DNA from: a virus
Strand: one strand, 5' to 3'
Virus genome (UHGV): UHGV-0029496
DNA: 24,034 nucleotides
Part shown: positions 8,391-23,294 of the stretch, in pieces
Position numbering within the stretch: position 1 is the stretch's first letter
Layout of the letters: every line of letters begins with the position of its first letter
The notes under the pieces: model-generated
What the model saw: only the letters and a program-made list of their open reading frames with translations
Databases searched by the model: none
Told to the model about the DNA's origin: nothing
Made by a program: the position numbers and the translations under genes

Positions 8391-8482
8391 TCTTTAATCC
8401 TTTGGTTAAGAGGTTACGGGTTAAGGTTGACGCGCCAGACGGGAACCACCCGCTTTTCGTGTGCGACACTAGGCGCAAACTT

Positions 8483-8554: not shown

Positions 8555-8881
8555 ATGCGTAAATTAGTATTAGCTCTGGGGTTTATGTCTTTTGCGGCTT
8601 TTGGGTCCTCGTGCGAACAGGCATTTAGTGAATCTGTTCTTATGACTTCTGGTGTGCTTGAGAAAGCCGACCCTACTATTGTAAAGGCATTTAGGGACTC
8701 TACCGTTCGCGAGTGTGAGGCCGCCGTGGAGGTTGGTAAATCGGGCCTACCCCCGCAAGCCGTAACATACACGGTAATACGTTCGGTAGAGAAAAACGGA
8801 GATGCGTTTTACAGCCTACTGACAGCCACCCGTCTGCAAATGGTAATGACGGGTTGGGCAGTAGGCGCAGAAAGTAAATAG
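8555..8881 (+). CDS. Small secreted protein or possible lipoprotein
   Basis: GAGGAA SD 6 nt before ATG; N-terminus MRKLVLALGFMSFAAFGSSC is a classic signal peptide with Cys at 20 (non-canonical lipobox); three Cys in total. Confidence 0.6.
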   Translation: MRKLVLALGFMSFAAFGSSCEQAFSESVLMTSGVLEKADPTIVKAFRDSTVRECEAAVEVGKSGLPPQAVTYTVIRSVEKNGDAFYSLLTATRLQMVMTGWAVGAESK

Positions 8882-8945
8882 TTGCCTTTATTTAAAGAAC
8901 GCACTGTGGCTAAATAGGACAAATCCTAAACACGAGGAAGTAAGT

Positions 8946-10076
8946 ATGGCCCAGAAGAAAATAACCGACGAACAGTTACAGGAAGAATTGAACGCCGGGA
9001 TGAAGAATATCGACATCGCACGTAAATATGGCATCTCAGACCGCGTTATTCGTATCCGTAAAGCGAAGCTGGCTAAGAAAGGTGTAGGCCACGGGCGTGA
9101 CGTTAGTCACCTTGTGCCGGACGGTTACAAGATTAAAGGAACGTCGTCACTGGTGGACGAGTTCGGCAACACTAAGTTGCAATGGGTTAAGACCGACACC
9201 GATGCCGAACGTCAGGTCGAATTGATGAAAGCCGTAATCGAAGGAATGAAGTCAGAGATTACGCCAGTTGCGCCTGTTAAAGCCATTCGCGCTAAACGCG
9301 ATGACAAGCTACTTAATCTTTACACGGTATCTGATTTTCATCTCGGTATGCTGGCATGGGCGGATGAGAGCGGCGACGACTGGGATATGAAGATTGCGGA
9401 AGACCTGTTCTCCCGATGGTTCGACGCGGCATTCCAGAAAGCACCGGATGCAGGAACAGGAGTTATTAATCTGTTAGGTGACTTCGCACACTTTGATAGT
9501 CTTGATGCCGTTACGCCCGAGTCGTGCCATGTGCTAGACGCGGATACGCGCTACCAGAAACTTGTCCGCTACATGATTCGCATGGTCCGCCGTGTTGTTG
9601 ATATGGCGCTGGTTAAGCATAACACCGTAAAACTTTTAATCATTCAAGGTAACCACGACCCTGTCGGCTCCGTATGGCTGTCCGAAATGTTCTGCACATT
9701 GTATGACAACGAACCTCGCGTATTTGTGGACACCTCCCCCGACGTATACAAGATGGTTCAGCACGGGAAAACTACACTATTCATGCACCACGGACACCGT
9801 GCGAGATTCGACGCCATAGAGTCGGTAATGATTTCTAAATTCCGTAAGGCTTTCGGAGAAAGCACATACAGCTACGCCCACGTAGGCCACCTGCACCATC
9901 AGAAGATTGTAGAAAGCCGTAACATGATTGTTGAGCAACACCGCACCTTAGCGGCTAAAGACGCCTACGCCTCTCGCGGCGGATGGATGTCAGGCCGTAG
10001 CGCGAATGTAATTACTTATAGCGCCGAATATGGTGAGGTCGCTCGTTTAACTATTTCACCGGAGATGCTGGGATGA
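8946..10076 (+). CDS. HTH domain fused to a calcineurin-like metallophosphoesterase (Mre11/SbcD-like motifs)
   Basis: GAGGAAG SD; N-terminal HTH-like segment IDIARKYGISDRVIRIRKAKL; motifs DFHLG (DxH), GDFAHFD (GDxxD), GNHD, HHGH, GHLHH in the canonical order. Confidence 0.7.
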   Translation: MAQKKITDEQLQEELNAGMKNIDIARKYGISDRVIRIRKAKLAKKGVGHGRDVSHLVPDGYKIKGTSSLVDEFGNTKLQWVKTDTDAERQVELMKAVIEGMKSEITPVAPVKAIRAKRDDKLLNLYTVSDFHLGMLAWADESGDDWDMKIAEDLFSRWFDAAFQKAPDAGTGVINLLGDFAHFDSLDAVTPESCHVLDADTRYQKLVRYMIRMVRRVVDMALVKHNTVKLLIIQGNHDPVGSVWLSEMFCTLYDNEPRVFVDTSPDVYKMVQHGKTTLFMHHGHRARFDAIESVMISKFRKAFGESTYSYAHVGHLHHQKIVESRNMIVEQHRTLAAKDAYASRGGWMSGRSANVITYSAEYGEVARLTISPEMLG

Positions 10077-10303
10077 CTTCAAAATACAACCGCACAATGA
10101 CAAACACCCACGGCAGCACTATGACTGTAGACGTTTACGATGTTCTCCGTGCTTTCGACATCCGCGACCCAGCGCTACAGCACGCATTAAAGAAACTGCT
10201 GTGCATGGGCTTGCGTGGTCACAAGGACACCGGGACCGACTTAGCGGAAGCGATTGAAAGTCTGGAGAAGTTACAGGAATACCGGAGTAATATTGATGAG
10301 TAA
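10073..10303 (+). CDS. Small hypothetical protein, translationally coupled to the phosphoesterase gene
   Basis: ATG overlaps the upstream TGA (ATGA at 10073-10076); 76 aa, helical and charged (DPALQHALKKLL...DLAEAIESLEKLQE). Confidence 0.55.
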   Translation: MTSKYNRTMTNTHGSTMTVDVYDVLRAFDIRDPALQHALKKLLCMGLRGHKDTGTDLAEAIESLEKLQEYRSNIDE

Positions 10304-10451
10304 GAAAAAGCGAACCCCAAACAACAACAACAACAACGTCCCGTATACCCCGCTGCCGTTTCCAGAGCCTAACAAGCCCTCGCCGCTTATGTCGGACAAC
10401 GAATGGCGGCGGGTCGCCAGAATGACCATCCGCCTGAGAAGACTGGCTTGA
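10296..10451 (+). CDS. Small Asn/Pro-rich basic protein
   Basis: ATG 10296 with GGAG 9 nt upstream, overlapping the end of the previous ORF by 8 nt; 51 aa MSKKKRTPNNNNNNVPYTPLPFPEP...; contains the (AAC)6 tract. Confidence 0.4.
   Translation: MSKKKRTPNNNNNNVPYTPLPFPEPNKPSPLMSDNEWRRVARMTIRLRRLA
10320..10337 (+). repeat. Perfect trinucleotide microsatellite (AAC)6, in frame (Asn6)
   Basis: aacaacaacaacaacaac read directly. Confidence 0.9.
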
Positions 10452-10463
10452 CCGATAAATAGT

Positions 10464-10483
10464 AAGGCCCTGAAAGGGGCCTT
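10464..10483 (+). terminator. GC-rich hairpin after the three-gene operon (weak terminator or attenuator)
   Basis: aaggccc-tgaaag-gggcctt, 7-bp stem, no clear U-tract. Confidence 0.3.
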
Positions 10484-10496
10484 ATCGCAACAGGAG

Positions 10497-10991
10497 ATGA
10501 TTATGGACTGGAATGAATTTTTCATATACGACTTAATTTCAGGAAGGATATTTAACAGAGTAACACGTTCCGGGAGGGCTAAGGCTGGAGAGGAGGCAGG
10601 TACGGTACAGCGAGACGGATATAGAAGGATATTTTTCAGGGGTAAATGGCACGCGGCGCACCGTATAGCTTGGGACTTAAACAATACTAACAATAAGCTA
10701 ACCTCGTCAGATCAAATAGACCATCTAGACCATAACCGAATAAACAATAGGCCGCTTAACTTAGCTAAAAAGTCCAATGCGGAAAACCATAAAAATATGT
10801 CAAAACAGCGTAATAATAAATCAGGAGTAACCGGGGTTTACTGGAACGCGAAAGAAAGGTTGTGGTACGCACAGATATTCAACAATAACGTAAAAACACA
10901 CATCGGGTGCTTTAAAACGCTACTAGATGCAGTTGCCGCAAGGAGAGTTGCTGAAAGAGATTTAGGGTTCCACGAGAACCACGGTAAATAG
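10497..10991 (+). CDS. HNH homing endonuclease with C-terminal AP2-like DNA-binding domain
   Basis: HNH core AHRIAWDL...IDHLDHNRINNRPLNL; C-terminal GVTGVYWNAKERLWYAQI...IGCFKTLLDAVAARR is AP2-like; Asn-rich and AT-rich codon usage unlike neighbours. AGGAG abuts ATG 10497, so ATG 10503 may be the true start. Confidence 0.75.
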   Translation: MIMDWNEFFIYDLISGRIFNRVTRSGRAKAGEEAGTVQRDGYRRIFFRGKWHAAHRIAWDLNNTNNKLTSSDQIDHLDHNRINNRPLNLAKKSNAENHKNMSKQRNNKSGVTGVYWNAKERLWYAQIFNNNVKTHIGCFKTLLDAVAARRVAERDLGFHENHGK

Positions 10992-10992
10992 T

Positions 10993-11016
10993 AAGGCCCC
11001 TTTCGGGGCCTTTTCC
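10993..11016. terminator. Bidirectional rho-independent terminator between convergent genes
   Basis: aaggcccc-tttc-ggggcctt followed by ttttcc on the plus strand; also U-rich on the minus strand. Sits between the plus HNH stop (10991) and the minus major tail stop (11017). Confidence 0.7.
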
Positions 11017-12183
11017 TTACGCGTAGCTAATACGCTGTATTACAATAGAAGATTGATATTGATTGCCTGTGGACTGTCCTTCTATGCTCTGAGTTATTGA
11101 TTCTGGCCCCCCAATCTCTGGTGTAACCGCCGTAAGTTCTGCGCGTTTCAGGCTGAAAGACATAGCCCCGTTTACCCCGGCCAGAATAGAGTTAATCTCC
11201 ACCTGCTGTTCGTTGATAAACTTCTGAATCATCACCATGTCGTACAGCTTGCCGGAGATAGAGAAGGTGTTAGCCGCGCGACCACGTTCCACGAACGCAA
11301 CGCTACTGTTGCCGAGTTCGAACTGTGCGGAAGCACCGTTGTCGTTGGTGATGGTCAGAGTATCGCAACGCAACGGCGTAGAGCCGTCGAACACAGACAC
11401 ATCTACAGATGAGAACGGCTCATCGGTAAACGTCACCTGAGAGAAATCAGAGCCTGCTGGCGGTGCGGTAAGAATCTCCTGACTCAGGCCGATGAACGGG
11501 AAGCTGCCAGTTACCATAGCGTTAACCGCCTGCTCTACGGTGAAGCCGGAGATTTCCACGCCTTTGGTGAGCATATACGCGTCCGGGTTGCCGCACTGGC
11601 CCTTGAACCACGTCAGGATGGAGAACGTCTTACATGCGTTACCGGTTTCCAGCTTGTCACCCGTTTTTGCGTCAGTGGTTACTGTCTCAGCCGTTAGCGT
11701 GTGCTGAATGCCAGCACCCGTAACTACCAGAGCGGAAACCGCAGTTACGATGAACGGTTTGGCGTTGTCGCCGGTTAAGCCGGTGAACGCAATCAGGTCG
11801 CCAACTTCTACGCCGTCAGTGACGAAGCTACCCGCCGCGCGAGTGAACGTCTTGCCAGTTGGCTCTACAGTGATGGACGCGCCCGTAATTTCTGCCCCAG
11901 CCTGCCATGTAGAAGTCATCGCGCCTGCAAGGAAATCATCCTGGCTACGGGAGCTAAGTTCAATAGCATACTCCCCGCTAACCTGCTTGTTACCGGTTCG
12001 GATGGATGTAGTTTCACGGCTGCCGTCGAGTTCGTTGGAAGTAAGCGCATCGCGGGTTACGGCAGGAACGCCGCCAGTGTTACGCAACGGTGACCATACC
12101 GGGTTAGTCGGTGTTACGCCCGGGGTAGTTTCCGCCACATAGAATTGCGCGGTATTCGCGCCCTTAAAAGGAGTTGTAGCCAT
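11017..12183 (-). CDS. Major tail (tube) protein
   Basis: 388 aa Thr/Gly/Ser-rich beta-type protein after the neck genes; AAGAGG SD before ATG 12183 (track start is GTG 12189); TGAATATG junction with the upstream gene. Confidence 0.6.
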   Translation of the reverse strand: MATTPFKGANTAQFYVAETTPGVTPTNPVWSPLRNTGGVPAVTRDALTSNELDGSRETTSIRTGNKQVSGEYAIELSSRSQDDFLAGAMTSTWQAGAEITGASITVEPTGKTFTRAAGSFVTDGVEVGDLIAFTGLTGDNAKPFIVTAVSALVVTGAGIQHTLTAETVTTDAKTGDKLETGNACKTFSILTWFKGQCGNPDAYMLTKGVEISGFTVEQAVNAMVTGSFPFIGLSQEILTAPPAGSDFSQVTFTDEPFSSVDVSVFDGSTPLRCDTLTITNDNGASAQFELGNSSVAFVERGRAANTFSISGKLYDMVMIQKFINEQQVEINSILAGVNGAMSFSLKRAELTAVTPEIGGPESITQSIEGQSTGNQYQSSIVIQRISYA

Positions 12184-12185
12184 AT

Positions 12186-12602
12186 TCACAGCCTCTTGGT
12201 GAATGCAATAAAGTTAATAGACAATGGTCGTTTGGCCCATCCGTTCTCTACAATCAGCGGCCCCAGGCTAACCGATTGAACCTCGGCGCAGATGTCGTTA
12301 CGTGAAAATGACTTACCTGCTTTAAACGCCGTGTTAAGTAAGTCTGCCATTTTATTGATTGGCGCGCTACCTTTCACCGATGCGTAGTTAATGTCAACCT
12401 GATAAATACCTGAGCGTTGTTCCGTGAAGAACAAATCAGCCTGCTCGGTATCCGCAAGTAACATGTAACTTGCCAGATACGGAGTATCGGTTGACGTCGG
12501 CGCGTCGATGTTTTCAAGCGCGACCTTGATGCCGTTGGTGGTTCCGAAGGCTACCAGTGGCACATCGAACGCTTTTGTTAAGTCCTCAAAGTAGCCCATC
12601 AT
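12186..12602 (-). CDS. Neck protein, tail-terminator-like by position
   Basis: 138 aa; start overlaps upstream stop (ATGATGA); immediately upstream of the major tail gene. Confidence 0.4.
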   Translation of the reverse strand: MMGYFEDLTKAFDVPLVAFGTTNGIKVALENIDAPTSTDTPYLASYMLLADTEQADLFFTEQRSGIYQVDINYASVKGSAPINKMADLLNTAFKAGKSFSRNDICAEVQSVSLGPLIVENGWAKRPLSINFIAFTKRL

Positions 12603-12994
12603 TTCACCTTGTTGGCTTCTTCGTTAATGAGTTGCTGGAAGCGGGACATGTTAGTCCTGACAACCCCGGAGGGCGCTTGTTGCGACCAACCATACTCCAG
12701 CCGTTGTGCATACGGCAGATTATTTGTCAGCGTGAATTCGCGCCAGTCCGCAGCTTTCAGCACGAAACTCGTAGCGTTTCCGATTGCTATGTTTCCTGAT
12801 TTATCTGTAGCATCCGTAACCCCTGAAGCAGGATTACCGCCAGACGCCATCCAGTTCATACGAAACCGACCAGTATCTACCGGACTCGCCTTTATGATAG
12901 CGGAAAACAGCTTGATAGACACCTGACGCATCACCTTCTCAGGGTTCTTCTTCGCCTTTTCCACGAACTTAGAGACATCGAGCGCGAAACTCAT
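12599..12994 (-). CDS. Neck / tail completion protein (hypothetical)
   Basis: 131 aa; ATGA overlap with the upstream gene; position in the head-tail joining block. Confidence 0.4.
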   Translation of the reverse strand: MSFALDVSKFVEKAKKNPEKVMRQVSIKLFSAIIKASPVDTGRFRMNWMASGGNPASGVTDATDKSGNIAIGNATSFVLKAADWREFTLTNNLPYAQRLEYGWSQQAPSGVVRTNMSRFQQLINEEANKVK

Positions 12995-13350
12995 TTTCTC
13001 ACCTGAATAAAGTATGCCACGACATCACCATTAACCATCTTCTTCTCGATGGCTACGACAGACCATTGCCCGCCGTCGAATTGCACCTTGTCTTCCATCT
13101 TCGGAACGACACTACAATCGGCTTTAACAATCACGTCACCAGCTTGAATAGTCGTACCGTTCACCCGTTCCGCGTTTACCGGAACTGGAACAGCCCTCAA
13201 CGGCAGCACTTCATCCGCAGACCATACGTACTCGCCGAGGGCTTCGTCCCACACTTTCGAGCCAGCGCGAATCAGAGATACCGTGCTGCCGAATTTGGTT
13301 AGCAGGCGTGTGCCCACGCCTTGCATACGTTTACTGAAAGCTGTGCTCAT
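12991..13350 (-). CDS. Neck / head closure protein (hypothetical)
   Basis: Track ORF 12991..13404 starts at a non-ATG codon; ATG 13350 has GGAGG SD and a TAATG overlap with the upstream stop, giving 119 aa. Confidence 0.4.
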   Translation of the reverse strand: MSTAFSKRMQGVGTRLLTKFGSTVSLIRAGSKVWDEALGEYVWSADEVLPLRAVPVPVNAERVNGTTIQAGDVIVKADCSVVPKMEDKVQFDGGQWSVVAIEKKMVNGDVVAYFIQVRK

Positions 13351-13964
13351 TACGCGGCCTCCAGTCTCGAAATAACCAGTAGCGCAGATGGCGCTGTACC
13401 CCATGCGGTTACGGTTGCGGCCTGCGGGTATACGCCGCCGAAGTTACTCCCGGAGCTATCCCGCATAATCTGAACGGCAAACGTCTGACCCGCTGTCGGG
13501 TTGATAACTACGCGGGACTCAATCGGGATGGTTACGTCGGCGCTTACCAGCTTAGTTGCTGCGGGGGAACCGTACTGAGCGCCGTTCAGAAGAATGCGCG
13601 ATAACAGGATAGATGTCCCACTGGCGCCCGTGCGCCCCGCCTGTAACTTGATTCGAACGGCATAGTTACCCGCGGTGTTGAACGTAACCAGCCCCGCAGC
13701 ATTAATCATTACTGGATCAGATGCGCTACCCTGAGCGGAGCCGAAAGTTAACTGCAACGCCGTGTCTAATGCGGTGGGTGCTTGCGTTACGGTCGACGAG
13801 GCGCGGAGAACTTCAACCTCTTTAACACCGGCCGCGGCGTAAATAGGCGAGTCTGCCATCTGGGTTAATACCCCGCGCAACTTCGATGGCGTGATAAGTC
13901 CGGTTGTGTTGTCGGGTAGCTCCGCGCCGATTAACGTAAATATCTCTGTTTTAGTCTTCACCAT
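13350..13964 (-). CDS. Hypothetical structural protein
   Basis: 204 aa Ala/Thr/Gly-rich; GGGGA SD; lies between connector-like and closure-like genes. Confidence 0.4.
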   Translation of the reverse strand: MVKTKTEIFTLIGAELPDNTTGLITPSKLRGVLTQMADSPIYAAAGVKEVEVLRASSTVTQAPTALDTALQLTFGSAQGSASDPVMINAAGLVTFNTAGNYAVRIKLQAGRTGASGTSILLSRILLNGAQYGSPAATKLVSADVTIPIESRVVINPTAGQTFAVQIMRDSSGSNFGGVYPQAATVTAWGTAPSALLVISRLEAA

Positions 13965-13966
13965 TG

Positions 13967-14479
13967 CTATCCCCGGTACACGTTAAACGAGAAGCCATTG
14001 TTAAGACCGCCACACAGTAACGGGCGTAAGGCGTCGTCCGCAGCGGTAATCGCGGTTGTGGCACCACTGTTACCATTGTTGAAGTAGGTCACCGTTACCG
14101 CACCCTCGACACGCTCAGTCTGCACGGAACGCCCGTCTGAGTTAGCCCGGACATCAGTACCCGCGCCATACGTAGCAGCGGCGGTTACCTGCGCAAGAAT
14201 TACCTGCTTCGGGATGGCGTTGTCAGCTACGGGGAACCCGTTTAGTGTTACACCAGTGCGAGGATAAGCCAGAGACTGTTCAGCGGACACACGGCGCCCG
14301 CACATCTGCGGTTCTGCAAGCCCTACATAAGTAGCGCCGTTGCGCAGGGCTACTTCGGCGGCGGTATCGTCTTCCGGTAGCTCAAGGCCATAATTAGCCG
14401 CTAACGCGCGGGCGTCAGCCAGGCTAACGTAACTGTCAGCGTCAGGTACTATTGACCCATCTTCCACGATTAGCGGCAT
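13967..14479 (-). CDS. Head-tail connector / adaptor (gp6-like pattern)
   Basis: GAGGAA SD; N-terminus ADSYVSLADARALAANYGL...DDTAAEVAL resembles the usual start of gp6-like connector proteins. Confidence 0.45.
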   Translation of the reverse strand: MPLIVEDGSIVPDADSYVSLADARALAANYGLELPEDDTAAEVALRNGATYVGLAEPQMCGRRVSAEQSLAYPRTGVTLNGFPVADNAIPKQVILAQVTAAATYGAGTDVRANSDGRSVQTERVEGAVTVTYFNNGNSGATTAITAADDALRPLLCGGLNNGFSFNVYRG

Positions 14480-14482
14480 AAA

Positions 14483-14662
14483 TTATTCCTCTGACTTACG
14501 GCGACGACGCTTAGTACCGCCGCCGTTGTTGTGCGCTTCTTCGTTGTCCGGTTGAGTCGCAACCAGTTCATCCGCTTCTACAACACCGCGAACGGGCATC
14601 ACCTGACCGTTAACAATGTCAACGTGGGTGTACTTTTCACGGATTACGTAATTATCTGCCAT
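14483..14662 (-). CDS. Small protein with basic C-terminal tail
   Basis: 59 aa found by hand (below the track cutoff): MADNYVIREKYTHVDIVNGQVMPVRGVV...GTKRRRRKSEE; AAGGAAAGG SD before ATG 14662; fills an otherwise unexplained gap. Confidence 0.45.
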   Translation of the reverse strand: MADNYVIREKYTHVDIVNGQVMPVRGVVEADELVATQPDNEEAHNNGGGTKRRRRKSEE

Positions 14663-14677
14663 GACCTTTCCTTATTA

Positions 14678-14693
14678 CGGCCCCGAAGGGCCG
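14678..14693 (-). terminator. GC hairpin between the decoration gene and the small gene (attenuator-like)
   Basis: cggccc-cgaa-gggccg, 6-bp stem. Confidence 0.3.
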
Positions 14694-14698
14694 TTGTA

Positions 14699-15040
14699 TT
14701 AAGACACAGTTGCTACAGTGCTACTGGAGATAATATTACCATACACATCATGAACAACCACTTTATACGTGCCTGAATCTGCGGTAGTAGTGGACGCCTT
14801 CGCATAGGAAGCAGCGTTTGCCCCGGCGATAGCGTTGTTGTTCTTGTACCACTGGTAGGAATATGGCTCCAGACCGCCAGTTACGGCTACGGTCAGTGTC
14901 ATGGTTTCACCCGCGGTAACGGAGGTAGTAGCCGCCAGTGCGGAAGAGAAAGACGCGGGAGAAATAGTCTCCATGTCAATCTTAGCACCCACTGTATCCG
15001 CAGAAACACCAGTAGTGCGTCGTTTTAGCACGTCTGCCAT
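14699..15040 (-). CDS. Ig-like domain head decoration protein (Hoc-like)
   Basis: AAGAGGA SD; 113 aa with Ig-type signature YSYQWYKNN...SGTYKVVV; immediately after the major capsid gene. Confidence 0.55.
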   Translation of the reverse strand: MADVLKRRTTGVSADTVGAKIDMETISPASFSSALAATTSVTAGETMTLTVAVTGGLEPYSYQWYKNNNAIAGANAASYAKASTTTADSGTYKVVVHDVYGNIISSSTVATVS

Positions 15041-15056
15041 TGAGGAATCCTCTTAG

Positions 15057-15085
15057 TAAATGAAAAGAGGGACCGAAGTCCCTCT
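15057..15085 (-). terminator. Rho-independent terminator after the major capsid gene
   Basis: agagggac-cgaa-gtccctct (8-bp stem) followed on the minus strand by UUUCAUUUA. Confidence 0.5.
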
Positions 15086-15101
15086 CGATTATATCTTAAC
15101 C

Positions 15102-16154
15102 TTAAGCCCCGACACCAGTTACCAGGAAGGCAATCGGTACATGCTTACGCTCAACCACACGGTTCCAGTTGGAGGCGTTCGCCAGGTCCTGCCAGGAAGC
15201 AGAGCGGGCGATAGTCTCGGTGCCGTTACCGGTGATTACCGCACTGGTGAAGCTGTAACCAAACGGATGCAGCAACCAGGTCTTACGGGTCCACAGGGTT
15301 TCAACGCCACCACCGTTACCGCGAGACGCTTCGCGCTCGTATTCCAGCGGGTTAGACGGAGAACCTTCACCATAACCAATAGCGCCGTTGCCGAAGATAA
15401 TGGAGATGAACTTACGGCTAGGGCCAGTACCGACTACGGTCATGCTGTCGTCAACAATCACACGGTAGCCCTGGTAGGTGGCGAACATGGTGTTGTTATC
15501 GGCATCGCGGATGAAGTCGATAAGCTGCTGCTTACGCGCCTGTGCATAAACGAAACTGTGCATCGCGATAGCGCCCAGTACTTCACCGCCGTTACCCATC
15601 AGAGCATCGCCCATGGTCTGGGTAGCGTCGATGAATGCGCCCGCGTCGAAGCCCAGAGTCGCGGACACGTCTACTACCATGTCGTTCTGCACGTGGTAAG
15701 CATCGGTAGCGGTTACGTTGTTGTTGTACAGACCTAGCGCAGTAGCAATCAGACGGCGTTGTGCCTGACGCTGCCAGAAGTTATCCAGACGAGAAGCCAC
15801 GGATTGCAGCGGGTTCTGGCTGGTCAGTTCTACAGTCAGGTCAGCCTGTCCAAAGCCTTCGTTCAGGTAAGCTACACGAACGTCCATCTCACCGGTTTGC
15901 ACGTTACGAGGGGTGGCGATGTCCTGATATACGTCGTTCGAGTAGTTCGGCTCGATAGAGGTATCAATCGCTTTCCAGTACGGCAGAACAGCTTTGTTGG
16001 ACGGGCCGTTAGCGATAGCCGCTGCGTACGGAGTCGGGGTCAGAATACCGGACTGGAAGAACGCGGTTTTCTCTACCGGGTCTTCTGTCATGTAAGACAG
16101 AATGACCGATTCTTTACCAGTTACGATGTCGCCGATAGTAGTAATTGCCATCAT
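15102..16154 (-). CDS. Major capsid protein
   Basis: 350 aa directly after the scaffold gene, followed by decoration gene and terminator; GAGGAAAA SD; start overlaps scaffold stop (ATGATGA). Confidence 0.8.
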   Translation of the reverse strand: MMAITTIGDIVTGKESVILSYMTEDPVEKTAFFQSGILTPTPYAAAIANGPSNKAVLPYWKAIDTSIEPNYSNDVYQDIATPRNVQTGEMDVRVAYLNEGFGQADLTVELTSQNPLQSVASRLDNFWQRQAQRRLIATALGLYNNNVTATDAYHVQNDMVVDVSATLGFDAGAFIDATQTMGDALMGNGGEVLGAIAMHSFVYAQARKQQLIDFIRDADNNTMFATYQGYRVIVDDSMTVVGTGPSRKFISIIFGNGAIGYGEGSPSNPLEYEREASRGNGGGVETLWTRKTWLLHPFGYSFTSAVITGNGTETIARSASWQDLANASNWNRVVERKHVPIAFLVTGVGA

Positions 16155-16855
16155 TTTTTCCTCAGGGCTTTAAGTTGCCGTTCAAATTCGGCAGGGTTCG
16201 ATTCGTACAGAGCGATACGCTCCGCTTCACTCATGTCTTTAAACGCTGGTGCGGCCCCGCCACCTTTGCTACCGGAAGCCCCGCCGCCGGAAGCTGCATT
16301 TGCTTTAATCAAATGCGAAAACGCTTTGTGTTCGCGCAGATATTTGCGGAACTGTTCCGGGTCAGTCGTGATTACATTGCCATCTGCACCAACAAACTTA
16401 GTAACCACATCATCGCCTTCGAACTCAGTCTTAACGAACGGCGCAAGAATGTCTACTGCTTCCGGGGTGATAAAGTCGCCCGCGAAAGAGCCTAACACCG
16501 CTTTACGTTCGCTGCCGAGGATGCGCTCTGCCATTTTGGAGATGCGGCCATCTTTCTCGGCTAACACCGGGTCATACTGGCTACGAATCGTCTTTTCGAA
16601 CTCGTCCATCTTACCGGCGGCTTTTAACGCCTCCTGGTGCGCGCGCTGCCGTTCTTCTTCGGCCTCTTTTGCTTTACGAGCGGCTTCTTTCTTCTCCGCC
16701 AGCAATGCTTCCTGATTAGCCTTAAGCCCGGCAACTTCTTTCTCGATCAGCGCCTGAACTTCTTCGGCGGTGAACATTTTCGGCGCGTCACCGCCGCCAG
16801 ATTTATCTTCTGCCCCAGCTTCTTCCTGGAACGGATAACGTAAAAAACGATTCAT
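16151..16855 (-). CDS. Capsid scaffolding protein
   Basis: Charged Ala/Glu/Lys-rich coiled-coil sequence (EEVQALIEKEVAGLKANQEALLAEKKEAARKAKEAEEERQRAHQEALKAAGK) directly upstream of the capsid gene. Track start is TTG 16909; first ATG is 16855. Confidence 0.7.
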   Translation of the reverse strand: MNRFLRYPFQEEAGAEDKSGGGDAPKMFTAEEVQALIEKEVAGLKANQEALLAEKKEAARKAKEAEEERQRAHQEALKAAGKMDEFEKTIRSQYDPVLAEKDGRISKMAERILGSERKAVLGSFAGDFITPEAVDILAPFVKTEFEGDDVVTKFVGADGNVITTDPEQFRKYLREHKAFSHLIKANAASGGGASGSKGGGAAPAFKDMSEAERIALYESNPAEFERQLKALRKK

Positions 16856-16909
16856 AGTCAGTATGTCCCCTGGACTTTGGAACCCGGGCCACCCGGATTT
16901 ACATGTCAA

Positions 16910-16928
16910 GAATAAATTATTCCAACAT
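16910..16928 (-). repeat. Copy A of a repeated intergenic motif (minus orientation ATGTTGGAATAAnnTATTC) abutting a TTGACA hexamer
   Basis: 12/12 identical core (ttattccaacat, plus 16917-16928) and 17/19 over the extended motif with copy B at 17692-17710. Confidence 0.5.
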
Positions 16929-16937
16929 GCAAGGCAA

Positions 16938-17201
16938 CTATTCCAGAATATTCCTCACGTAATCCTGCAACATGAACACTTTCAGTCTCAGTTGCCGTAC
17001 GCATTCGGCGTTCTGAACATCAATAGCCAAATCCTCGTCTGTGTCGCTACTTGGCGCGGCCAGTTTGCACGGCGGCTGCATCATCGTCGTATCCGGGGAT
17101 GGAATTGGCGTTTGCGACGGCGCGGGACTTGAGCTGCACGCGCTCAGGGTCAAAAGTGCACACGCTGCGACCAGGCGTTTTAATGTACTTAACGACTTCA
17201 C
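16938..17201 (-). CDS. o-spanin (Rz1-like outer-membrane lipoprotein)
   Basis: GTG start with GAGGT SD; signal peptide plus perfect lipobox LSAC; Pro-rich mature part (CSSSPAPSQTPIPSPD); starts inside the Rz-like ORF in another frame and extends past its stop. Confidence 0.55.
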   Translation of the reverse strand: MKSLSTLKRLVAACALLTLSACSSSPAPSQTPIPSPDTTMMQPPCKLAAPSSDTDEDLAIDVQNAECVRQLRLKVFMLQDYVRNILE

Positions 17202-17433
17202 GGGTAATTACCTCTGATTTCGTCTTGCCTTCGTTGTCAGCGGCTGCGGCCTTTGATTCGTCCTGCTGCTGCCGTTGTGTTTTCTTCGCCAGCTCGGCCT
17301 GCGCTTTCTGCTGTTGCTGCGAAACGAGATTAGCCCGGCCTTCGTTCCACCCTTGAAGATAGTTGTATTTCCCGTAAGCGAAAACGAGAAACGCGGAACA
17401 TGCCGTGGTTATGATTGCTGCTTTAAGATTCAT
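17047..17433 (-). CDS. i-spanin (Rz-like)
   Basis: AAGGAG SD; N-terminal transmembrane segment AAIITTACSAFLVFAY followed by a Gln/Lys/Glu-rich coiled-coil region; overlapped by the lipoprotein ORF. Confidence 0.55.
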   Translation of the reverse strand: MNLKAAIITTACSAFLVFAYGKYNYLQGWNEGRANLVSQQQQKAQAELAKKTQRQQQDESKAAAADNEGKTKSEVITREVVKYIKTPGRSVCTFDPERVQLKSRAVANANSIPGYDDDAAAVQTGRAK

Positions 17434-17457
17434 GTTTCTCCTTTCTCGATAAGTAAA

Positions 17458-17477
17458 GCCCCGCCTTAAAGCGGGGC
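17458..17477 (-). promoter_or_regulatory. Hairpin in the 5' leader just upstream of the Rz-like RBS
   Basis: gccccgc-cttaaa-gcggggc (7-bp stem), followed on the minus strand by UUUACUUAUCG and then the SD. Confidence 0.35.
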
Positions 17478-17656
17478 GCTAGTCCTTATCATTTAAACAT
17501 AGAAACGGCGTAATCTCAGTAAACCAGTTACTTTTTACACAAGCAATAGACTATGGCCCTTCCGAACGCGTCAGCGACACTACACTCAGTGCTAACGCAC
17601 CGCTCCGTTCTCCTGCCGCGCCGCGGTCGCTTGTTCATACTTCACAAGCTCAGGTG

Positions 17657-17685
17657 GAGCTTATCATATTTTTAGTGAAAAGTCA
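17657..17685 (-). promoter_or_regulatory. Sigma70-like promoter candidate driving minus-strand genes
   Basis: Minus strand TTGACT (plus 17680-17685), 17-nt spacer, TGaTAAGCT extended -10 (plus 17657-17662). Confidence 0.3.
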
Positions 17686-17691
17686 ACTATT

Positions 17692-17710
17692 CGAATAGTT
17701 TATTCCAACA
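17692..17710 (-). repeat. Copy B of the repeated intergenic motif, 6 nt upstream of the TTGACT -35 candidate
   Basis: See copy A; core ttattccaacat at plus 17699-17710. Confidence 0.5.
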
Positions 17711-17744
17711 TTTACAATTGAGGGGAATAACTGGAATAATCACA

Positions 17745-17770
17745 GGCATTAAAAAGCCCCTTTCGGGGCT
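17745..17770 (-). terminator. Rho-independent terminator after the Ig-like gene
   Basis: aagcccc-tttc-ggggctt (7-bp stem) followed on the minus strand by UUUUAAUG; starts 6 nt after the stop codon. Confidence 0.7.
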
Positions 17771-17775
17771 TCAGT

Positions 17776-18237
17776 TTATTCCGGCTTAGTAACCTTCGCC
17801 GCTTTGCTTACGGCCTCTACACCATCGGCATCGGTGGCTTTAACGAAGTATTCACCGACTGCATTAACTGTCAGAGACAGAGCCTCTTCCGGGGCGTTTA
17901 CCACTTCCTTACCGTCTTTGTACCAGGTCAGAGCATACGGGGCTTTACCCGCCTTAACTTCGACAGTGATAGTCGCACTGCCGTCTGCCAGTTCAGCGTC
18001 TTTCGGCTGTACCGAGAAGTACACGTCACCTGCATTGACCAAATACGGAATCTCATAAACCATACCTGCCGCGGGTAACGCAATACCGGTCTTGTCAGCA
18101 AACGGCATATCGTCTACAGGCGAACCCAGTACACTTTCATCTTCAATAAACACCACGTTCTCACCAGAGCCAGACACACGGGCGTACTGGACTACGCGAC
18201 GCGACGGCACATCAGTTACTTTGAAAAAGCCCATCAT
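17776..18237 (-). CDS. Ig-like domain protein (minor capsid or decoration candidate)
   Basis: AAGGGG SD; ATGATG start overlaps the upstream stop; C-terminal Ig-type signature YALTWYKDGKEV. Confidence 0.5.
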   Translation of the reverse strand: MMGFFKVTDVPSRRVVQYARVSGSGENVVFIEDESVLGSPVDDMPFADKTGIALPAAGMVYEIPYLVNAGDVYFSVQPKDAELADGSATITVEVKAGKAPYALTWYKDGKEVVNAPEEALSLTVNAVGEYFVKATDADGVEAVSKAAKVTKPE

Positions 18238-19313
18238 TATTCCCCTTTCAGATAATCAGCAACACGTTTATCGAGTTCCGCCATCTGCTTAAGCGTGAGC
18301 GGATTCCCGAAACCATCTACAGATATTACGCGAAACTCTTCCGGCGATATACCGCTGTTGCGGAAAATCTTACCGCGGGTCGGTCCGAGTGCTTCATCCT
18401 GAAACCATGCTGGTTGTTGTTTCAGGAACTCGTAATAGGTTGTGTCCGCGCTTACCTGAGTACCCCCGTCTGCACCCTTAGCCGCACGTTTTGCACCTTT
18501 ATCGAGGAAGTCGAACTCGGAACTGATTACCGGGGCCGTGCACGATCGACAGTTCGGATGGGCTGGGGGCATTGGACCTTTACCGATTTCCCACGTCATC
18601 CCATCTCTGGCTCTGCAAATCGTACTGGTACGGCTGTCCAGCGTCGACACCCATTCGTACTTCTCGATGATGTCGTCGTTCTGGCGGTACGTCTCGTTAC
18701 GCGCTTCGTTGGACACGTGCGACAGCGCGGTGCGGATTACTGTAGCTGCGTTACGTTCAGAGATGTCGGCAAGCCCACCCGCACCAACAACATTCTTAAC
18801 AATCTGCCGTGTGGTTTGACCTTGTACAAAACCCATCTTAACACCGGTTACCAGGCGCGATACTTCTGTTTCCCCCCAGCCATCCATCAGCTTCGTGAAA
18901 TCAACAGGCTTGTCACTTAACGATAATGGCTGAAACTCGGCCGCGGCCCACACCTGTTCCGCGGTAGGTGTGACAAATTCCGCGTTAACGTTGGTGGTAA
19001 GTGTCTTTACGTTCCACTCGGCCTCATACGCCGCCAGTTCCTTAAGGTCTTCTGTCAGCTTCGTTTGCCAATCACCGGTAAGCCTGGTCAATGCTTCTTC
19101 CAGGTCGCGCAACAATTTATTCAGTCGCGCAGTGCTGCGCCCATCGTCGCCGAATAACAGCACCTGCCGTTTGATTTCATCTCGCATCTCCTGGATGAAC
19201 GGTGCGAGGTCTTTCACTTCACCGGATGCGGTGCGTTGTAGCCATATCTGGTGGCTGATTAGTGATGTCAGTAAGCTCATAGATAAACCCTGTGGCGCTA
19301 AAGTTAATAGCAT
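18237..19313 (-). CDS. Head morphogenesis protein (Mu gpF / SPP1 gp7-like)
   Basis: 358 aa immediately downstream of the portal gene; C-terminal conserved PMPPAHPNCRSC motif characteristic of Mu-F-like proteins. Confidence 0.8.
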   Translation of the reverse strand: MLLTLAPQGLSMSLLTSLISHQIWLQRTASGEVKDLAPFIQEMRDEIKRQVLLFGDDGRSTARLNKLLRDLEEALTRLTGDWQTKLTEDLKELAAYEAEWNVKTLTTNVNAEFVTPTAEQVWAAAEFQPLSLSDKPVDFTKLMDGWGETEVSRLVTGVKMGFVQGQTTRQIVKNVVGAGGLADISERNAATVIRTALSHVSNEARNETYRQNDDIIEKYEWVSTLDSRTSTICRARDGMTWEIGKGPMPPAHPNCRSCTAPVISSEFDFLDKGAKRAAKGADGGTQVSADTTYYEFLKQQPAWFQDEALGPTRGKIFRNSGISPEEFRVISVDGFGNPLTLKQMAELDKRVADYLKGE

Positions 19314-19314
19314 A

Positions 19315-19339
19315 CTATAAGAAAGCCCCTTTCGGGGCT
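19315..19339 (-). terminator. Hairpin between the portal and head morphogenesis genes (partial terminator or attenuator)
   Basis: agcccc-tttc-ggggct, the same 18-mer as at 17752-17769; followed on the minus strand by UUCUUAUAG. Confidence 0.4.
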
Positions 19340-19349
19340 ATATGTGAAC

Positions 19350-20831
19350 TTACTGCTGATTGGCGTCCTGTTGTTGCGCCGACTGCGGAATCTCTCCTGA
19401 TACCTGAGCAACAGCACCTAATGGTAGGGGTGCGTCCTCAATCGCAGTCTTAATCTCCTCGTCAGTCCAGTCAGTAACCCCCGCCTTACGCAATGCCGCG
19501 TAGTAAGCAGTAGCGGGTAGCAGGCCGGCGTTAATATCCGCCATCCACTGCGCTCGTTCGGGCGCGGTCATCGGTTGCAGGAAGAACTCCATATTCAGTT
19601 TGAACTCAATCTCTGTGCCTTCACGCAACCCTAACATCGCAGCTACCCAGCGCAGCGCATCGGTGTACGCCATGCTTACGTTACGCGCGATTGTCGCCAT
19701 AACAGACGTGTCAGCACCACGTTGCAGGCGGGCCGATTCAGCGGTGATTTGCTGTGTCGGGGTGATAAGCTGCGCGCCAATCTGGATGGCCTGATTCTCT
19801 TTATCCAGCATGTTCTGTTTGGCGAGGTTATTCTCTCCCGCCTGGACCAGAAACGCGTTGCCGCCGTACCCGATGTTATGACCCGAACGTGACCCCATGC
19901 GCACGCCGTGGGGGTTGGCTTCTTTCCACTGTTCTATGCCCATGTTCTCCCCCGGGGCGATGAACAGAGTAGGCTGGCCAACAACGAAGCTGGACTCCTC
20001 ATTGTCTGCGCTGTTGCGGAAATGCCCAATATTAAGCTCAGCCAACGGCAGTAGAGGCGCATCGTCGATGGTCGCGTCGTTGTTGCTCGCCCCGATAAAC
20101 GTGAACGGGATTTTGCCGCGTAACTGTTCCCCAAGTTCCGGGAATATTTCGATTACTTCATCCTGGGCACCACCTTCGGCATCGAATCTGTAAATGCGCT
20201 GGCGGTAGCGCCCGTCAATCAGGTCAAGGACGCGGTATTGTTCACCGAACTTGGTTTCGAACTCTGCACCGGGTTCTGAGTATTCCCATACCTCACGCAG
20301 CACGACCATCGTCACGCGGTTAACTGAACCGACGCGAGTCAGTCGCCAGTTGATGATGTTCTCTGCGGTGTAGAATGCGATGACCGGGTTTAATAATCCA
20401 GCATTCTGTTCGGCCGCCGTGGCCGCAGCAGTCTCCGGGGCATCAACCAGCAACCCACCGCGGCCTACAGAGTCAATCTCCATCAGCGTATCCTGCGCGT
20501 GCTGCCACAGACCAACACCGGAGCCGTCCGCATTGCGTAACAGGTACTCCAGTTCAGGCGGAATAATTTGTTCCGGGTCTTTGCGCATCACCGACCCCAC
20601 CATCCCCGCCAGGGTACGCTTAGTGAAGTTGTAGCAGATAGCACCGTTCTCGTATTCTTCCTGGCGCTGGGCCGCGTAGGTCGGGTCAGGCTCATTCTTT
20701 CCGACGTTGCGAAGATAGCGAATAATGTCGCCTTCCAGAGCGTGGCGTACCTTCTGCCATTTATCGAAGTGATGCAGCCATTCCCGGTGTTTTGTCTTAA
20801 CACCTTGATTCTGACCGTTCATAGTTAACAT
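19350..20831 (-). CDS. Portal protein
   Basis: 493 aa between the terminase/HNH genes and the Mu-F-like gene; GGAG SD 9 nt before ATG 20831; size and position typical. Confidence 0.8.
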   Translation of the reverse strand: MLTMNGQNQGVKTKHREWLHHFDKWQKVRHALEGDIIRYLRNVGKNEPDPTYAAQRQEEYENGAICYNFTKRTLAGMVGSVMRKDPEQIIPPELEYLLRNADGSGVGLWQHAQDTLMEIDSVGRGGLLVDAPETAAATAAEQNAGLLNPVIAFYTAENIINWRLTRVGSVNRVTMVVLREVWEYSEPGAEFETKFGEQYRVLDLIDGRYRQRIYRFDAEGGAQDEVIEIFPELGEQLRGKIPFTFIGASNNDATIDDAPLLPLAELNIGHFRNSADNEESSFVVGQPTLFIAPGENMGIEQWKEANPHGVRMGSRSGHNIGYGGNAFLVQAGENNLAKQNMLDKENQAIQIGAQLITPTQQITAESARLQRGADTSVMATIARNVSMAYTDALRWVAAMLGLREGTEIEFKLNMEFFLQPMTAPERAQWMADINAGLLPATAYYAALRKAGVTDWTDEEIKTAIEDAPLPLGAVAQVSGEIPQSAQQQDANQQ

Positions 20832-20835
20832 AGTC

Positions 20836-21450
20836 TTACTCCGTAGTTAGTTTACGATATACAGCCGCGCACTTTCGCCCGCAGGTGACACGAGGTTTAT
20901 AGCGGTTATGCTCGTGAGTAGCGCCGCAGACGGGGCATATAGCTGTTACGTTATCTACCCCCGAAGCCCGTCTATGTGCCGCTAAGCATCTTTTAGAACA
21001 AAAACAATTCTCGCCCTTTGTCGGTATGGCCGTAAACTCTTTGTTGCAATAAGAGCATATTTTTTCAACCTTAACGTGAAGTTTGTCTTTTGTGGCTTCG
21101 TAATGTGCCTTATGCCACTGCCGGCCTGCTTCACTGGCGTGCCACTCTTTAGTTAAATGCTGGTGCTTGCGGCCCATTTCGGCCGACCTGGCACGCGCTT
21201 CATCAGTAGAGAAATGCAGATAGCTATGGTCTGACGCCGAAAGCATCTCTAGGTTTTCTATTTGATTATTTGAGCGGTCTTCGTCTTTATGGTGGATGTC
21301 ATACCCTTCTGGGATTTCCCCGTTGAAATATGACCATACAACTCTGTGCAACCTTTTAACAATTGATGAGTTCATAAAATAGTTACCACACAAATAGTAA
21401 CGCGTACCGTTAAATTCTTGGATTGTTGGGGATATAACTTTTACTCGCAT
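20836..21450 (-). CDS. HNH endonuclease with C-terminal Cys-rich zinc-ribbon region
   Basis: HNH core YDIHHKDEDRSNNQIENLEMLSASDHSYLH; Cys clusters CSYCNKEF, CFCSKRC, CPVCGATHEH, CGRKC. Track start is TTG 21477; ATG 21450 follows an AGGAGG SD. Confidence 0.8.
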   Translation of the reverse strand: MRVKVISPTIQEFNGTRYYLCGNYFMNSSIVKRLHRVVWSYFNGEIPEGYDIHHKDEDRSNNQIENLEMLSASDHSYLHFSTDEARARSAEMGRKHQHLTKEWHASEAGRQWHKAHYEATKDKLHVKVEKICSYCNKEFTAIPTKGENCFCSKRCLAAHRRASGVDNVTAICPVCGATHEHNRYKPRVTCGRKCAAVYRKLTTE

Positions 21451-21506
21451 ATAGCCTCCTGATTGTTTACCTGACAATATCAGTAAGACCGATGCGAGTA
21501 AATACG

Positions 21507-22742
21507 CTATAACGTGAATCTGACAGGAGTGTTGATAACAGGGCGGACAACAGGGAACAACCTATGCATACAATAACCTAAACTGTCGTTCCAGTCGTCG
21601 ATAGCCGGGTGAGTTTTAAACTTCTCCGGTTCACCATTATCGTTATACCCCTGCGTCTCCAGTGACTGCGTCAATTTAGGGCATTTTGAAGTGTTAACCC
21701 TCAAACGGCTATGTGACAAAAGAGCGTTAACCGCGTTTATTCTGTCTTTAACGAATGGGTTCTTACTCGGAGCGTTAACACGTAAGCCGGCCTTTTCGAT
21801 GATACCTATGTCGGATAACGATGCGTTAGTGTGGCCTGAGCGACCAGAGGCGTCAGGGTAAACCGTAACCGTATGGCCCGGATACCGTATCCTGACATTA
21901 TTGACGAAGTCGTCGGTATTATGGCTGACAAACTCATCAACAACCGTCGGGTTGCCGTCTTCGATAATGCTCACGGTGGCGCAACAGCCGCCGATGTTAA
22001 AGTCCAACCCTATGTGCAGAGCGTCTCCGTTCTGCAAGGTGCGAGTGGAGTCATGTGTGTTTCGTTTGAAATAGTGATACACCTTATTGGCCGTCAAACT
22101 GACAAATTCACCGTTGATATACATATCAGCCAAAGCCGCGTCGTAGTTCCTTCGTATCTGCTCGACGTAGCCGTCAGGTAAATATGGGTTCGACAATGTA
22201 GACGCCTTAATCAGTTCCGTAGAACTGTCAGCGTTAGTAACCCAATAGTCATACACAAATCCGGAGAATCCCTGGTCGGGCGTAGTCACGGCGGCAATAC
22301 TGTTCCCGCCCCTACATGGCTGTCGGGTGCGCTCTGAAATTTTACGCCACACCAGGGACGCCTGTTCTTTAGTAAGAACGTCAAGTTCATCGGCGACAGA
22401 ATGGGCTACTTCAAAAGCGATTAGACGGTTCGGGTTGTCATAGGACCTGAAAAACATAGTACCGTACCCCTTAACATGGATACTGTATTCCGATTTGTTG
22501 AGGTCATACTTAAGCCCCATCATATTCAGGTCATCAACCACACCAGGGATGGCGCGCAGCTTCAACAGGTCATATGTAGGCATGGTGTACAGGGTGTTTA
22601 TCCCGCGCTCGCGCAACATGAGATACAGGAGGCGCATAGTGGCCGCGCGGGACTTGCCCGCCCCCAGTCCAGCGACAATAGCTGGATGTGTCTTTGTACT
22701 GAATACAAAGTCCTGTTGGGGTTCTGTTAATGGAATATCCAT
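21507..22742 (-). CDS. Terminase large subunit
   Basis: Walker A GLGAGKS near the N-terminus, Walker-B-like LIAFEVAHSVADE, C-terminal Asp-rich nuclease-like region; TAATG overlap with the upstream small ORF. Confidence 0.85.
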   Translation of the reverse strand: MDIPLTEPQQDFVFSTKTHPAIVAGLGAGKSRAATMRLLYLMLRERGINTLYTMPTYDLLKLRAIPGVVDDLNMMGLKYDLNKSEYSIHVKGYGTMFFRSYDNPNRLIAFEVAHSVADELDVLTKEQASLVWRKISERTRQPCRGGNSIAAVTTPDQGFSGFVYDYWVTNADSSTELIKASTLSNPYLPDGYVEQIRRNYDAALADMYINGEFVSLTANKVYHYFKRNTHDSTRTLQNGDALHIGLDFNIGGCCATVSIIEDGNPTVVDEFVSHNTDDFVNNVRIRYPGHTVTVYPDASGRSGHTNASLSDIGIIEKAGLRVNAPSKNPFVKDRINAVNALLSHSRLRVNTSKCPKLTQSLETQGYNDNGEPEKFKTHPAIDDWNDSLGYCMHRLFPVVRPVINTPVRFTL

Positions 22743-23254: not shown

Positions 23255-23294
23255 AGAATCCCCTTGCATATGCGTCTGACCATCAGAGCGCACC

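Follow-up and report, generated by a model that had tools for sequence, protein, structure and literature searches.

GC-rich intergenic hairpins among the late genes of a Kagunavirus phage as probable RNA-level punctuation

The hairpin family and the late genes it separates

The virus genome UHGV-0029496 was analysed over a stretch of 24,034 nucleotides, referred to here as the window, in which GC-rich hairpins stand between the late genes of a phage. A sequence-only reading had described these hairpins as a family of near-identical intergenic punctuation marks, and all seven that it listed are indeed present, intergenic and stable. The 18-mer AAAGCCCCTTTCGGGGCT occurs in two exact copies, at 17753-17770 and 19322-19339; the identity of the pair and the position of the second copy had been given correctly, whereas the first copy had been placed at 17752-17769. 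Variants of the 18-mer are found at 10993-11010 (two mismatches, the close variant already recognised there) and, on the minus strand, at 10466-10483 (three mismatches), which brings the family to four matches in the window compared with 0.02 expected from shuffles. The remaining hairpins lie exactly where they had been located, at 10464-10483, 14678-14693, 15066-15085 and 17458-17477, and two extra members were detected outside the range first noted, at 23353-23372 and 23295-23313. All of the hairpins have stems of 6-9 bp with 4-7 G-C pairs and loops of 4-6 nt, and every one is positioned in an intergenic region, 4-30 nt past a stop codon, with the exception of 17458, which closes a leader. 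When perfect stems of at least 6 bp with at least four G-C pairs are counted, the window contains nine in 1,802 intergenic bases versus nine in 22,232 coding bases (~12-fold enrichment), and the complete relative Bas74 contains 14 in 2,157 intergenic bases versus 20 in 40,939 coding bases (~13-fold). The 38-43-nt stretches that were folded gave energies of -13.4 to -19 kcal/mol and z-scores of -2.2 to -4.0 relative to dinucleotide shuffles, so that the energy check suggested with the original description leaves the hairpins well under their shuffled controls.

A megablast search with positions 10000-20000 of the window matched 493 phage records, the top of which are Escherichia Kagunavirus phages (Guernseyvirinae) with ~90% identity. 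Judged by its sequence, the window is that of a Kagunavirus, a siphovirus of E. coli within the Guernseyvirinae, whose head and tail genes are carried by the minus strand. We mapped these genes from annotated relatives and by tblastn with the open reading frames (ORFs) of the window. The small terminase gene (22742-23293) is first in transcription order and is followed on the same strand by the large terminase gene (21507-22742), a second, free-standing HNH gene (20836-21477; HNH_3, E = 1e-18) and the genes for the portal (19350-20831), head morphogenesis (18237-19313) and an immunoglobulin-like (Ig-like) decoration protein (17776-18237). Next come the spanins (17047-17433, with an embedded second spanin that ends near 16938), the scaffold (16151-16855), the major capsid protein (15102-16154), a second Ig-like protein, taken as the second decoration protein (14699-15040), and a 59-aa gene (14483-14662), after which connector genes lead towards the tail tube gene (11017-12189). 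These minus-strand genes converge on a plus-strand island (8555-10991) that carries an immunity gene, an exonuclease, small ORFs and an HNH homing-endonuclease gene (10497-10991) with a hairpin copy on each side. One complete, fully annotated relative contains no RNA polymerase gene, and the late genes are therefore expected to be transcribed by the host polymerase.

In the order in which the minus strand is transcribed, the hairpins at 23353-23372 (AAGCCAUC-UACG-GAUGGCUU then UUCUG) and 23295-23313 flank a promoter-like site (TGTACA, 18 nt, TATAAT) that is located 3′ of hairpin 23353 and ahead of the small terminase gene. The hairpin past the portal gene (19322-19339, minus strand) reads AGCCCC-GAAA-GGGGCU followed by UUCUUAUAG and is identical to predicted terminator T01 of phage VB_EcoS-Golestan (Golestan). 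It is likely to be a leaky terminator, since 9 nt separate it from the start of the head-morphogenesis gene and a consensus scan found no promoter-like site in between. The hairpin past the Ig-like decoration gene (17753-17770, minus strand; AAGCCCC-GAAA-GGGGCUU then UUUAAUG) closes the block that runs from terminase to decoration protein. A putative leader terminator (17458-17477, minus strand; GCCCCGC-UUUAAG-GCGGGGC then UUUACUUAUC), which is identical to Golestan T03 and to terminator T7 predicted in phage fBC-Eco01, is positioned 24 nt ahead of the spanin start codon. Past the major capsid gene, the hairpin at 15065-15086 on the minus strand (GAGAGGGAC-UUCG-GUCCCUCUU then UUCAUUUAC; identical to Golestan T04) is likely to act as a partial terminator. 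The same scan detected no promoter-like site between this hairpin and the next gene, and read-through past both 19322 and 15066 is therefore required, with part of transcription passing each of them. The following hairpin (14677-14694, minus strand; ACGGCCC-UUCG-GGGCCGU) has no U tract and stands 5 nt ahead of the ribosome-binding site of the next small gene; it is conserved but is no canonical terminator on the late strand. The bidirectional hairpin at 10993-11012, with the form AAGGCCCC-loop-GGGGCCTT, separates the plus-strand HNH gene from the minus-strand tail tube gene. A near-copy of it at 10463-10484, on the plus strand, has its loop inverted (GAAA), has no plus-strand U tract and represents the upstream one of the two repeat copies between which the HNH cassette lies. 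Hairpins are thus found past the portal, decoration, major capsid and tail tube genes, in agreement with the proposed placement after highly expressed genes and at operon boundaries.

Terminator anatomy, conservation and RNA-level roles

Read on the minus strand, the hairpin loops are GAAA (19322, 17753 and 10993), UUCG (15066 and 14678), UACG (23353) and UUAA/UUUAAG (17458), and the plus-strand hairpin 10464 has a GAAA loop on its own strand. On the transcribed strand, seven of these eight loops belong to the GNRA or UNCG tetraloop classes, and the stability of such tetraloops argues that the hairpins function in RNA, in the direction of the genes. The G+C-rich stem and short loop of an intrinsic terminator are present in all of the hairpins. 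The eight bases past the stem contain five to six U at 19322, 17753, 17458, 15066 and 10993 (plus strand), and four at 10993 (minus strand) and 23353, where two more U lie at the end of the stem. The U-rich tails on both strands of 10993 fit the bidirectional terminator that had been proposed at this site. Five hairpins with U tails (19322, 17753, 17458, 15066, and 10993 on both strands) are best read as intrinsic terminators or attenuators. The tail of 14678 (UAAUAAGG) is followed by the ribosome-binding site of the next gene and that of 10464 (AUCGCAAC) by the ribosome-binding site of the HNH gene, and these two, which have no U tract, are better read as conserved RNA hairpins rather than canonical terminators. 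Hence the suggestion that the hairpins grade transcription along the late operon as terminators or attenuators can be upheld for the five with U tails but not for 14678-14693 and 10464-10483.

Conservation was assessed in 80 related loci fetched via the capsid protein. The positions of the hairpins are shared across ~50 relatives: nearly all Guernseyvirinae loci have a hairpin past the decoration, capsid, second decoration and tube genes, and most have one past the portal gene. The capsid-gene hairpin is retained, with unrelated sequence, in most relatives that have only 40-45% capsid protein identity, and four of its seven pairs are changed on both sides in a compensatory manner. The leader terminator occurs with the stems GCCCCGC/GCGGGGC, GCCCTGC/GCAGGGC, GCCCGGC/GCCGGGC and GCCCGAC/GTCGGGC, which correspond to compensatory changes of C-G to U-A, C-G to G-C and G-C to A-U. 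For the 14678-type hairpin, inspection of the alignment indicates that the fold is kept while its register is shifted between clades (ACGGCCC...GGGCCGT versus GCGGCC...GGCCGC). A further element is located directly upstream of the capsid-gene hairpin, a TATAAT box (15088-15093, minus strand; TATACT in one clade) that is kept across Guernseyvirinae clades though the spacer around it varies, and that has no -35 element.

The presence and position of the hairpins, their stability, strand-specific tetraloops, conservation and compensatory changes are direct observations, and we consider it likely that the hairpins serve as RNA-level punctuation for the host RNA polymerase, those with U tails as intrinsic terminators or attenuators. 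Termination, its efficiency and the stabilisation of messages are the steps that we infer. A hairpin followed by a U-rich tail would cause intrinsic (Rho-independent) termination of graded strength, leaky within the late operon. Leaky hairpins would lower transcription of the genes downstream and leave a 3′ hairpin that protects the message upstream, an outcome that would favour capsid and tail tube mRNA over that of the low-copy connector genes. Hairpin 10993 would terminate both of the converging units, and hairpins 17753 and 17458 would bracket a separate short transcription unit. The tail-less hairpins 14678 and 10464 would more probably stabilise or insulate the ends of messages, next to the following start site, than terminate transcription. 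The near-identity of the copies probably reflects a shared optimal design under selection together with occasional copying as gene cassettes insert.

The stem lengths bear on a second proposal, that the exact repetition marks a shared RNA-processing site, at which RNase III would cut the late polycistronic RNA into separate messages. The intergenic placement in a long operon is reminiscent of the RNase III sites of phage T7. However, the sites that RNase III naturally cuts in E. coli and T7 consist of irregular helices of ~20 bp, whereas the stems examined here are 6-9 bp and capped by tetraloops, and the sole nearby helix that reaches such a length is the leader's long hairpin (17538-17630). 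We therefore regard processing by RNase III as highly improbable.

The hairpins that lack a U tract raise the alternative that the family comprises message-stabilising or translation-insulating structures instead of terminators, which would block 3′ exonucleases once the RNA has been processed, or keep the next ribosome-binding site unpaired, while the polymerase itself is not stopped. Apart from the missing U tract at 14678-14693 and 10464-10483, this is suggested by the location of 14678-14693, 5 nt upstream of the next ribosome-binding site, by its retention in all 50-odd relatives despite altered stem sequence and register (ACGGCCC versus GCGGCC), and by the UUCG and GAAA loops, which are typical of stable RNA caps. 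Hairpin 10464-10483 belongs to the HNH cassette, which is carried by only three of the fetched relatives. On the other hand, the other five hairpins have the full anatomy of terminators, U tails included, and are picked up by standard predictors, and the covariation at 14678 is by inspection, an RNAalifold consensus at this type of junction not having been obtained since the register differs between clades. Moreover, termination and stabilisation are compatible rather than exclusive, and as a substitute for termination this explanation is possible but in our view doubtful.

Several points count against the assignment of the hairpins as terminators. A literature search found no mapping of transcript 3′ ends, by Term-seq or other methods, for any Guernseyvirinae phage, and the sole Kagunavirus RNA-seq study that we located there is at the level of genes only. 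Several tails are interrupted (UUCUUAUAG, ACUAUUUAC), so that efficiencies may be low, and hairpins 14678 and 10464 fall short of a terminator U tract, with two U in the eight bases of the former tail and one U in the latter. In relatives, the loops at the bidirectional sites are often neither GNRA nor UNCG. Finally, the palindromic stems would also allow a role at the level of DNA, and the insertions found at hairpin junctions hint at one.

A structured leader upstream of the spanin and capsid genes

The segment between hairpins 17753 and 17458 specifies a candidate leader RNA that ends at 17458, with the spanin, scaffold and capsid genes next. A sigma-70-type promoter on the minus strand (17658-17686; TTGACT, 17 nt, TGaTAAGCT with an extended -10) can be read from the sequence and from its conservation in the alignment, and it is preceded by TTATTCC/GGAATAA repeats. 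The consensus scan did not flag this promoter, the -10 element of which matches the consensus at just three of six positions. With the start site taken from the promoter, the leader spans ~197 nt (17455-17651, minus strand) and includes a long irregular hairpin (17538-17630). Pairing is also possible between the 5′ end of the leader and a segment just ahead of the spanin ribosome-binding site. In an alignment of 20 sequences, 97.7% of cells are paired in the proposed structure compared with 34-53% when the partners are slid, and the covariation score is 0.303 compared with at most 0.058, in a sample that represents only two main clades and few independent events. One compensatory pair arose independently inside the Kagunavirus clade (L019). 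A third helix (GTAAC/GTTAC) within the long hairpin, examined by eye, is present in most Kagunavirus sequences and, through compensation, in L015; it has two mismatches in the window and is not claimed here.

A covariance model finds one copy of the leader per genome. Rfam searches of the whole window, and a more permissive search of 17420-17790, returned no match above a family threshold, the best being wcaG (18 bits, threshold 42) and int-alpA (27.7 bits, threshold 35.8). In GenBank, the leader block is 93-96% identical in 180 Escherichia and Salmonella phages, where it is mostly unannotated or called as a 36-aa hypothetical protein. Only the outer motif GCGACCGC...CGGAAGGGCC is retained in the L024/L036 clade, and other Guernseyvirinae clades have different structured leaders in the same place. 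The 36-aa ORF (MNKRPRR...) that overlaps the leader keeps its frame over AFGRA..YC in most sequences, through two compensating indels in L016; its start varies (ATG, GTG or TTG), conservation is lacking in its N-terminal half, L019 has lost the frame, and base pairs are preserved in it by paired nonsynonymous changes. On these grounds, the ORF is probably non-coding.

The sequence around the leader promoter (17700-17782) contains a cluster of TTATTCC/GGAATAA repeats and the perfect palindrome ACTATTCGAATAGT. TTATTCC occurs nine times in the window versus 3.1 expected, and the stretch upstream of the scaffold gene (16917-16950) repeats the shared motif ATGTTGGAATAA, TGTAAAT and a TTGAC -35-like element. 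The TTATTCC cluster may be a regulator-binding array. For relatives, AATAG/CTATT motifs of a similar kind have been listed as PHIRE 'phage promoters'.

The arrangement, in which lysis and late genes directly follow a promoter and a short terminated leader, raises the possibility of a late switch. If so, 17458 would be a checkpoint terminator, the leader or a factor bound to its long hairpin would make the polymerase resistant to termination, and the modified polymerase would read through the whole downstream string of hairpins, in the manner of lambda PR′/tR′ or put; the stems would additionally be cassette joints with flipping loops. In phage lambda, PR′, the 6S RNA and tR′ form a late checkpoint that is relieved by Q antitermination, and phage HK022 has the put RNA. 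As far as the promoter at 17658-17686 and the terminator at 17458 are concerned, the resemblance to PR′-6S-tR′ is a ~200-nt terminated transcript directly upstream of lysis and late structural genes. In contrast to lambda and HK022, no Q-like or N-like gene is annotated in Bas74, and the leader has no sequence or Rfam similarity to these systems. Inspection by eye for an antiterminator helix that would pair the leader with the 5′ arm of the terminator yielded just 4 bp, and such a helix was rejected. By analogy the leader may act in antitermination, and we judge the checkpoint scheme as a whole to be unlikely; were it true, it would be the first such switch known from this phage family.

Hairpin copies, insertions, loop inversion and known systems

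The exact 18-nt identity of the hairpins at 17753 and 19322, with 0.02 matches expected, invites the explanation that they were copied from each other, by recent duplication or as a small mobile repeat, and such copying did occur elsewhere in the window, since the pair that flanks the HNH gene is a genuine duplication. However, the flanks of 17753 and 19322 are unrelated past the hairpin, where the repeat finder extends to just 23 nt at 91% identity (repeat family D4), and each site is kept at its own junction in many relatives with a site-specific tail. The tail past the portal gene is constant in relatives (TTTCTTATAGT) and that past the decoration gene is slightly variable (TTTTTA(A/G)TG). 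Junction-specific tails and unrelated flanks therefore argue for a shared design, and we consider it very unlikely that the two 18-mers derive from one another. The duplication that had been suggested thus applies to the pair 10453-10486/10982-11015 around the HNH gene and not to the 18-mers.

The repeats of this pair are 34 nt in length (family D7) and differ in the orientation of one loop. In the relative L001 the HNH cassette lies between two identical 20-bp hairpins, and in L021 the site is empty and contains a single hairpin. Adjacent to the cassette in the window is a 156-nt insertion (10304-10452, plus strand) that all 80 related loci lack. It contains a short ORF that encodes six asparagines in a row, and it terminates with the TAAATAGT-plus-hairpin that also closes the HNH cassette at its 3′ end, which gives it the appearance of a relic of a further cassette. 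In relatives, insertions of 160-2,000 nt occur directly past the portal and decoration-gene hairpins, which form a hot spot. Most of these insertions carry accessory genes on the reverse strand (KilA-N, Vut_1, PAPS-reductase-like) that end directly at the hairpin, and the inserted genes are then predicted to share it as a bidirectional terminator. Where a junction bears an insertion, the hairpin stem is preceded by a run of A and followed by a run of T, whereas hairpins at insertion-free junctions are asymmetric (AGCCCC...GGGGCTTTTT). Comparison of 15041-15101 of the window with L003-L060 shows that most relatives have, directly past the capsid hairpin, an additional forward-strand ORF (84-126 aa), which is absent from the window and from five relatives; insertions or deletions thus have a border at the capsid hairpin as well.

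At three junctions, and in both orientations, the stem AAGGCCCC/GGGGCCTT scarcely varies, and the flank TAAAACTAAGG recurs with it, while the loop that it carries is hypervariable. At the decoration-gene junction the loops differ in 41 of 51 phage pairs, with 20-nt flanks that are ~92% identical. The tube junction has a loop of GAAA or of TTTC, its reverse complement, or else of the corresponding pair GGAA/TTCC, and phages whose flanks are 98% identical differ in it. On the evidence of these alignments, the GAAA<->TTTC flips carry the signature of loop inversion at a perfect palindrome, a change attributable to template switching. Inversion of hairpin loops by template switching at palindromes (PMC8794818) and quasipalindrome mutation in E. 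coli (PMC7202029) have been described previously.

The insertions and repeated stems are also what would be expected if the hairpins were primarily recombination joints at the level of DNA, short and nearly constant palindromes at the borders of modules where cassettes, those with homing-endonuclease genes among them, are inserted, lost or swapped, with termination as a secondary property. The hot spots past the portal and decoration genes, the bracketed cassette of L001 and its counterpart in the window, set beside the empty site of L021, and the repetition of one stem and even its flank at three junctions in both orientations are consistent with this explanation. There is also a documented precedent in the promoter-terminator motifs of T4-type phages termed PeSLs, for which shuffling of gene cassettes has been proposed (PMC2839356, PMC4122927). 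Yet homology at the hairpins extends over only 16-28 bp and includes no promoter half, unlike that of PeSLs, and the capsid and leader hairpins have RNA-type compensatory changes and strand-specific tetraloops. The association may moreover be passive, intergenic terminators being the places where insertions are tolerated, and this explanation, under which only insertions at terminators survive, is no less likely than PeSL-like shuffling. The second HNH gene (20836-21477) has no hairpin on either side, which counts against joints of this kind and weakens the notion, now set aside, that HNH genes need a hairpin as their target. We hold a primary role in recombination to be conceivable but on balance improbable, and continue to favour RNA-level punctuation.

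Other features of the window were noted in passing. The second HNH gene, between the large terminase and portal genes, is missing from nearly all relatives, and the large terminase (21507-22742) has ~39% identity to that of most Kagunavirus relatives and 78% to that of L049, this end of the head module therefore being mosaic. A strong terminator-like hairpin at 7819-7840 on the minus strand (ACGGGGC...GCCCCGT then TTCTCTTAT) sits within the second tail-assembly-chaperone frame, upstream of the tape-measure gene, and could be an internal attenuator or be linked to the chaperone frameshift. The weak Rfam match to the int-alpA small RNA (8432-8476, minus strand; 27.7 bits, threshold 35.8, E = 0.049) falls in the divergent stretch that separates the tail chaperone gene from the plus-strand island and is probably due to chance.

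As an addition to knowledge, the hairpins contribute little, being the standard terminator set of a well-sampled phage genus that genome papers have tabulated. Their practical use lies in annotation and in the engineering of therapeutic Kagunavirus phages, for which the hairpin junctions are natural sites for extra genes. The leader RNA and the behaviour of loops and insertions are the sole parts that merit follow-up: if confirmed, the conserved leader would be a first handle on late-gene control in Guernseyvirinae, and the flipping, hypervariable loops would be a clean natural example of palindrome-driven mutation.

Among known systems, the closest are the ARNold-predicted Rho-independent terminators of Golestan (Table S5, T01-T07; PMC7203180) and fBC-Eco01 (Table S2, T1-T9; PMC9825357), which have the same sequences, and the hairpin set is accordingly ordinary, already known and tabulated as predicted terminators in close relatives. 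Identical or near-identical sequences, for example GCCCCGAAAGGGGCTTTCTTATAGTA, GCCCCGCTTTAAGGCGGGGCTTTACTTATCGA and GAGGGACTTCGGTCCCTCTTTTCATTTACT, occupy the same gene junctions; the hairpin of the 14678 type was predicted there as a terminator on the strand opposite the genes (Golestan T05). Those papers give ARNold output only, with no comment on loop variability, insertion junctions or the leader. With PeSLs the hairpins have in common that short conserved regulatory stem-loops mark insertion/deletion borders between close relatives. PeSLs differ in being longer composites of an early promoter and a stem-loop, whereas here the stem-loop alone is repeated between unrelated flanks; only sites 17753 and 23353 have a promoter 3′ of the hairpin, and the promoter sequence is not repeated. 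The loops resemble template-switch inversions in that a loop is replaced by its exact reverse complement (GAAA<->TTTC, GGAA<->TTCC) while the palindromic stem and flanks are unchanged, and differ in that such inversions are known mainly from rRNA, chloroplast and E. coli reporter sequences, not from phage terminators. In phage T7, the intrinsic terminator T-phi stands just past the major capsid gene 10, reduces transcription downstream and leaves a protective 3′ hairpin on the capsid message. Unlike T-phi, the Kagunavirus hairpins would serve the host RNA polymerase and not a phage polymerase, and two of them have no U tail. Like E. coli and phage intrinsic terminators in general, T-phi among them, they combine a G+C-rich stem, a tetraloop and a U tail, and like T-phi they are found past the most abundant structural gene, where read-through is needed for the genes beyond.

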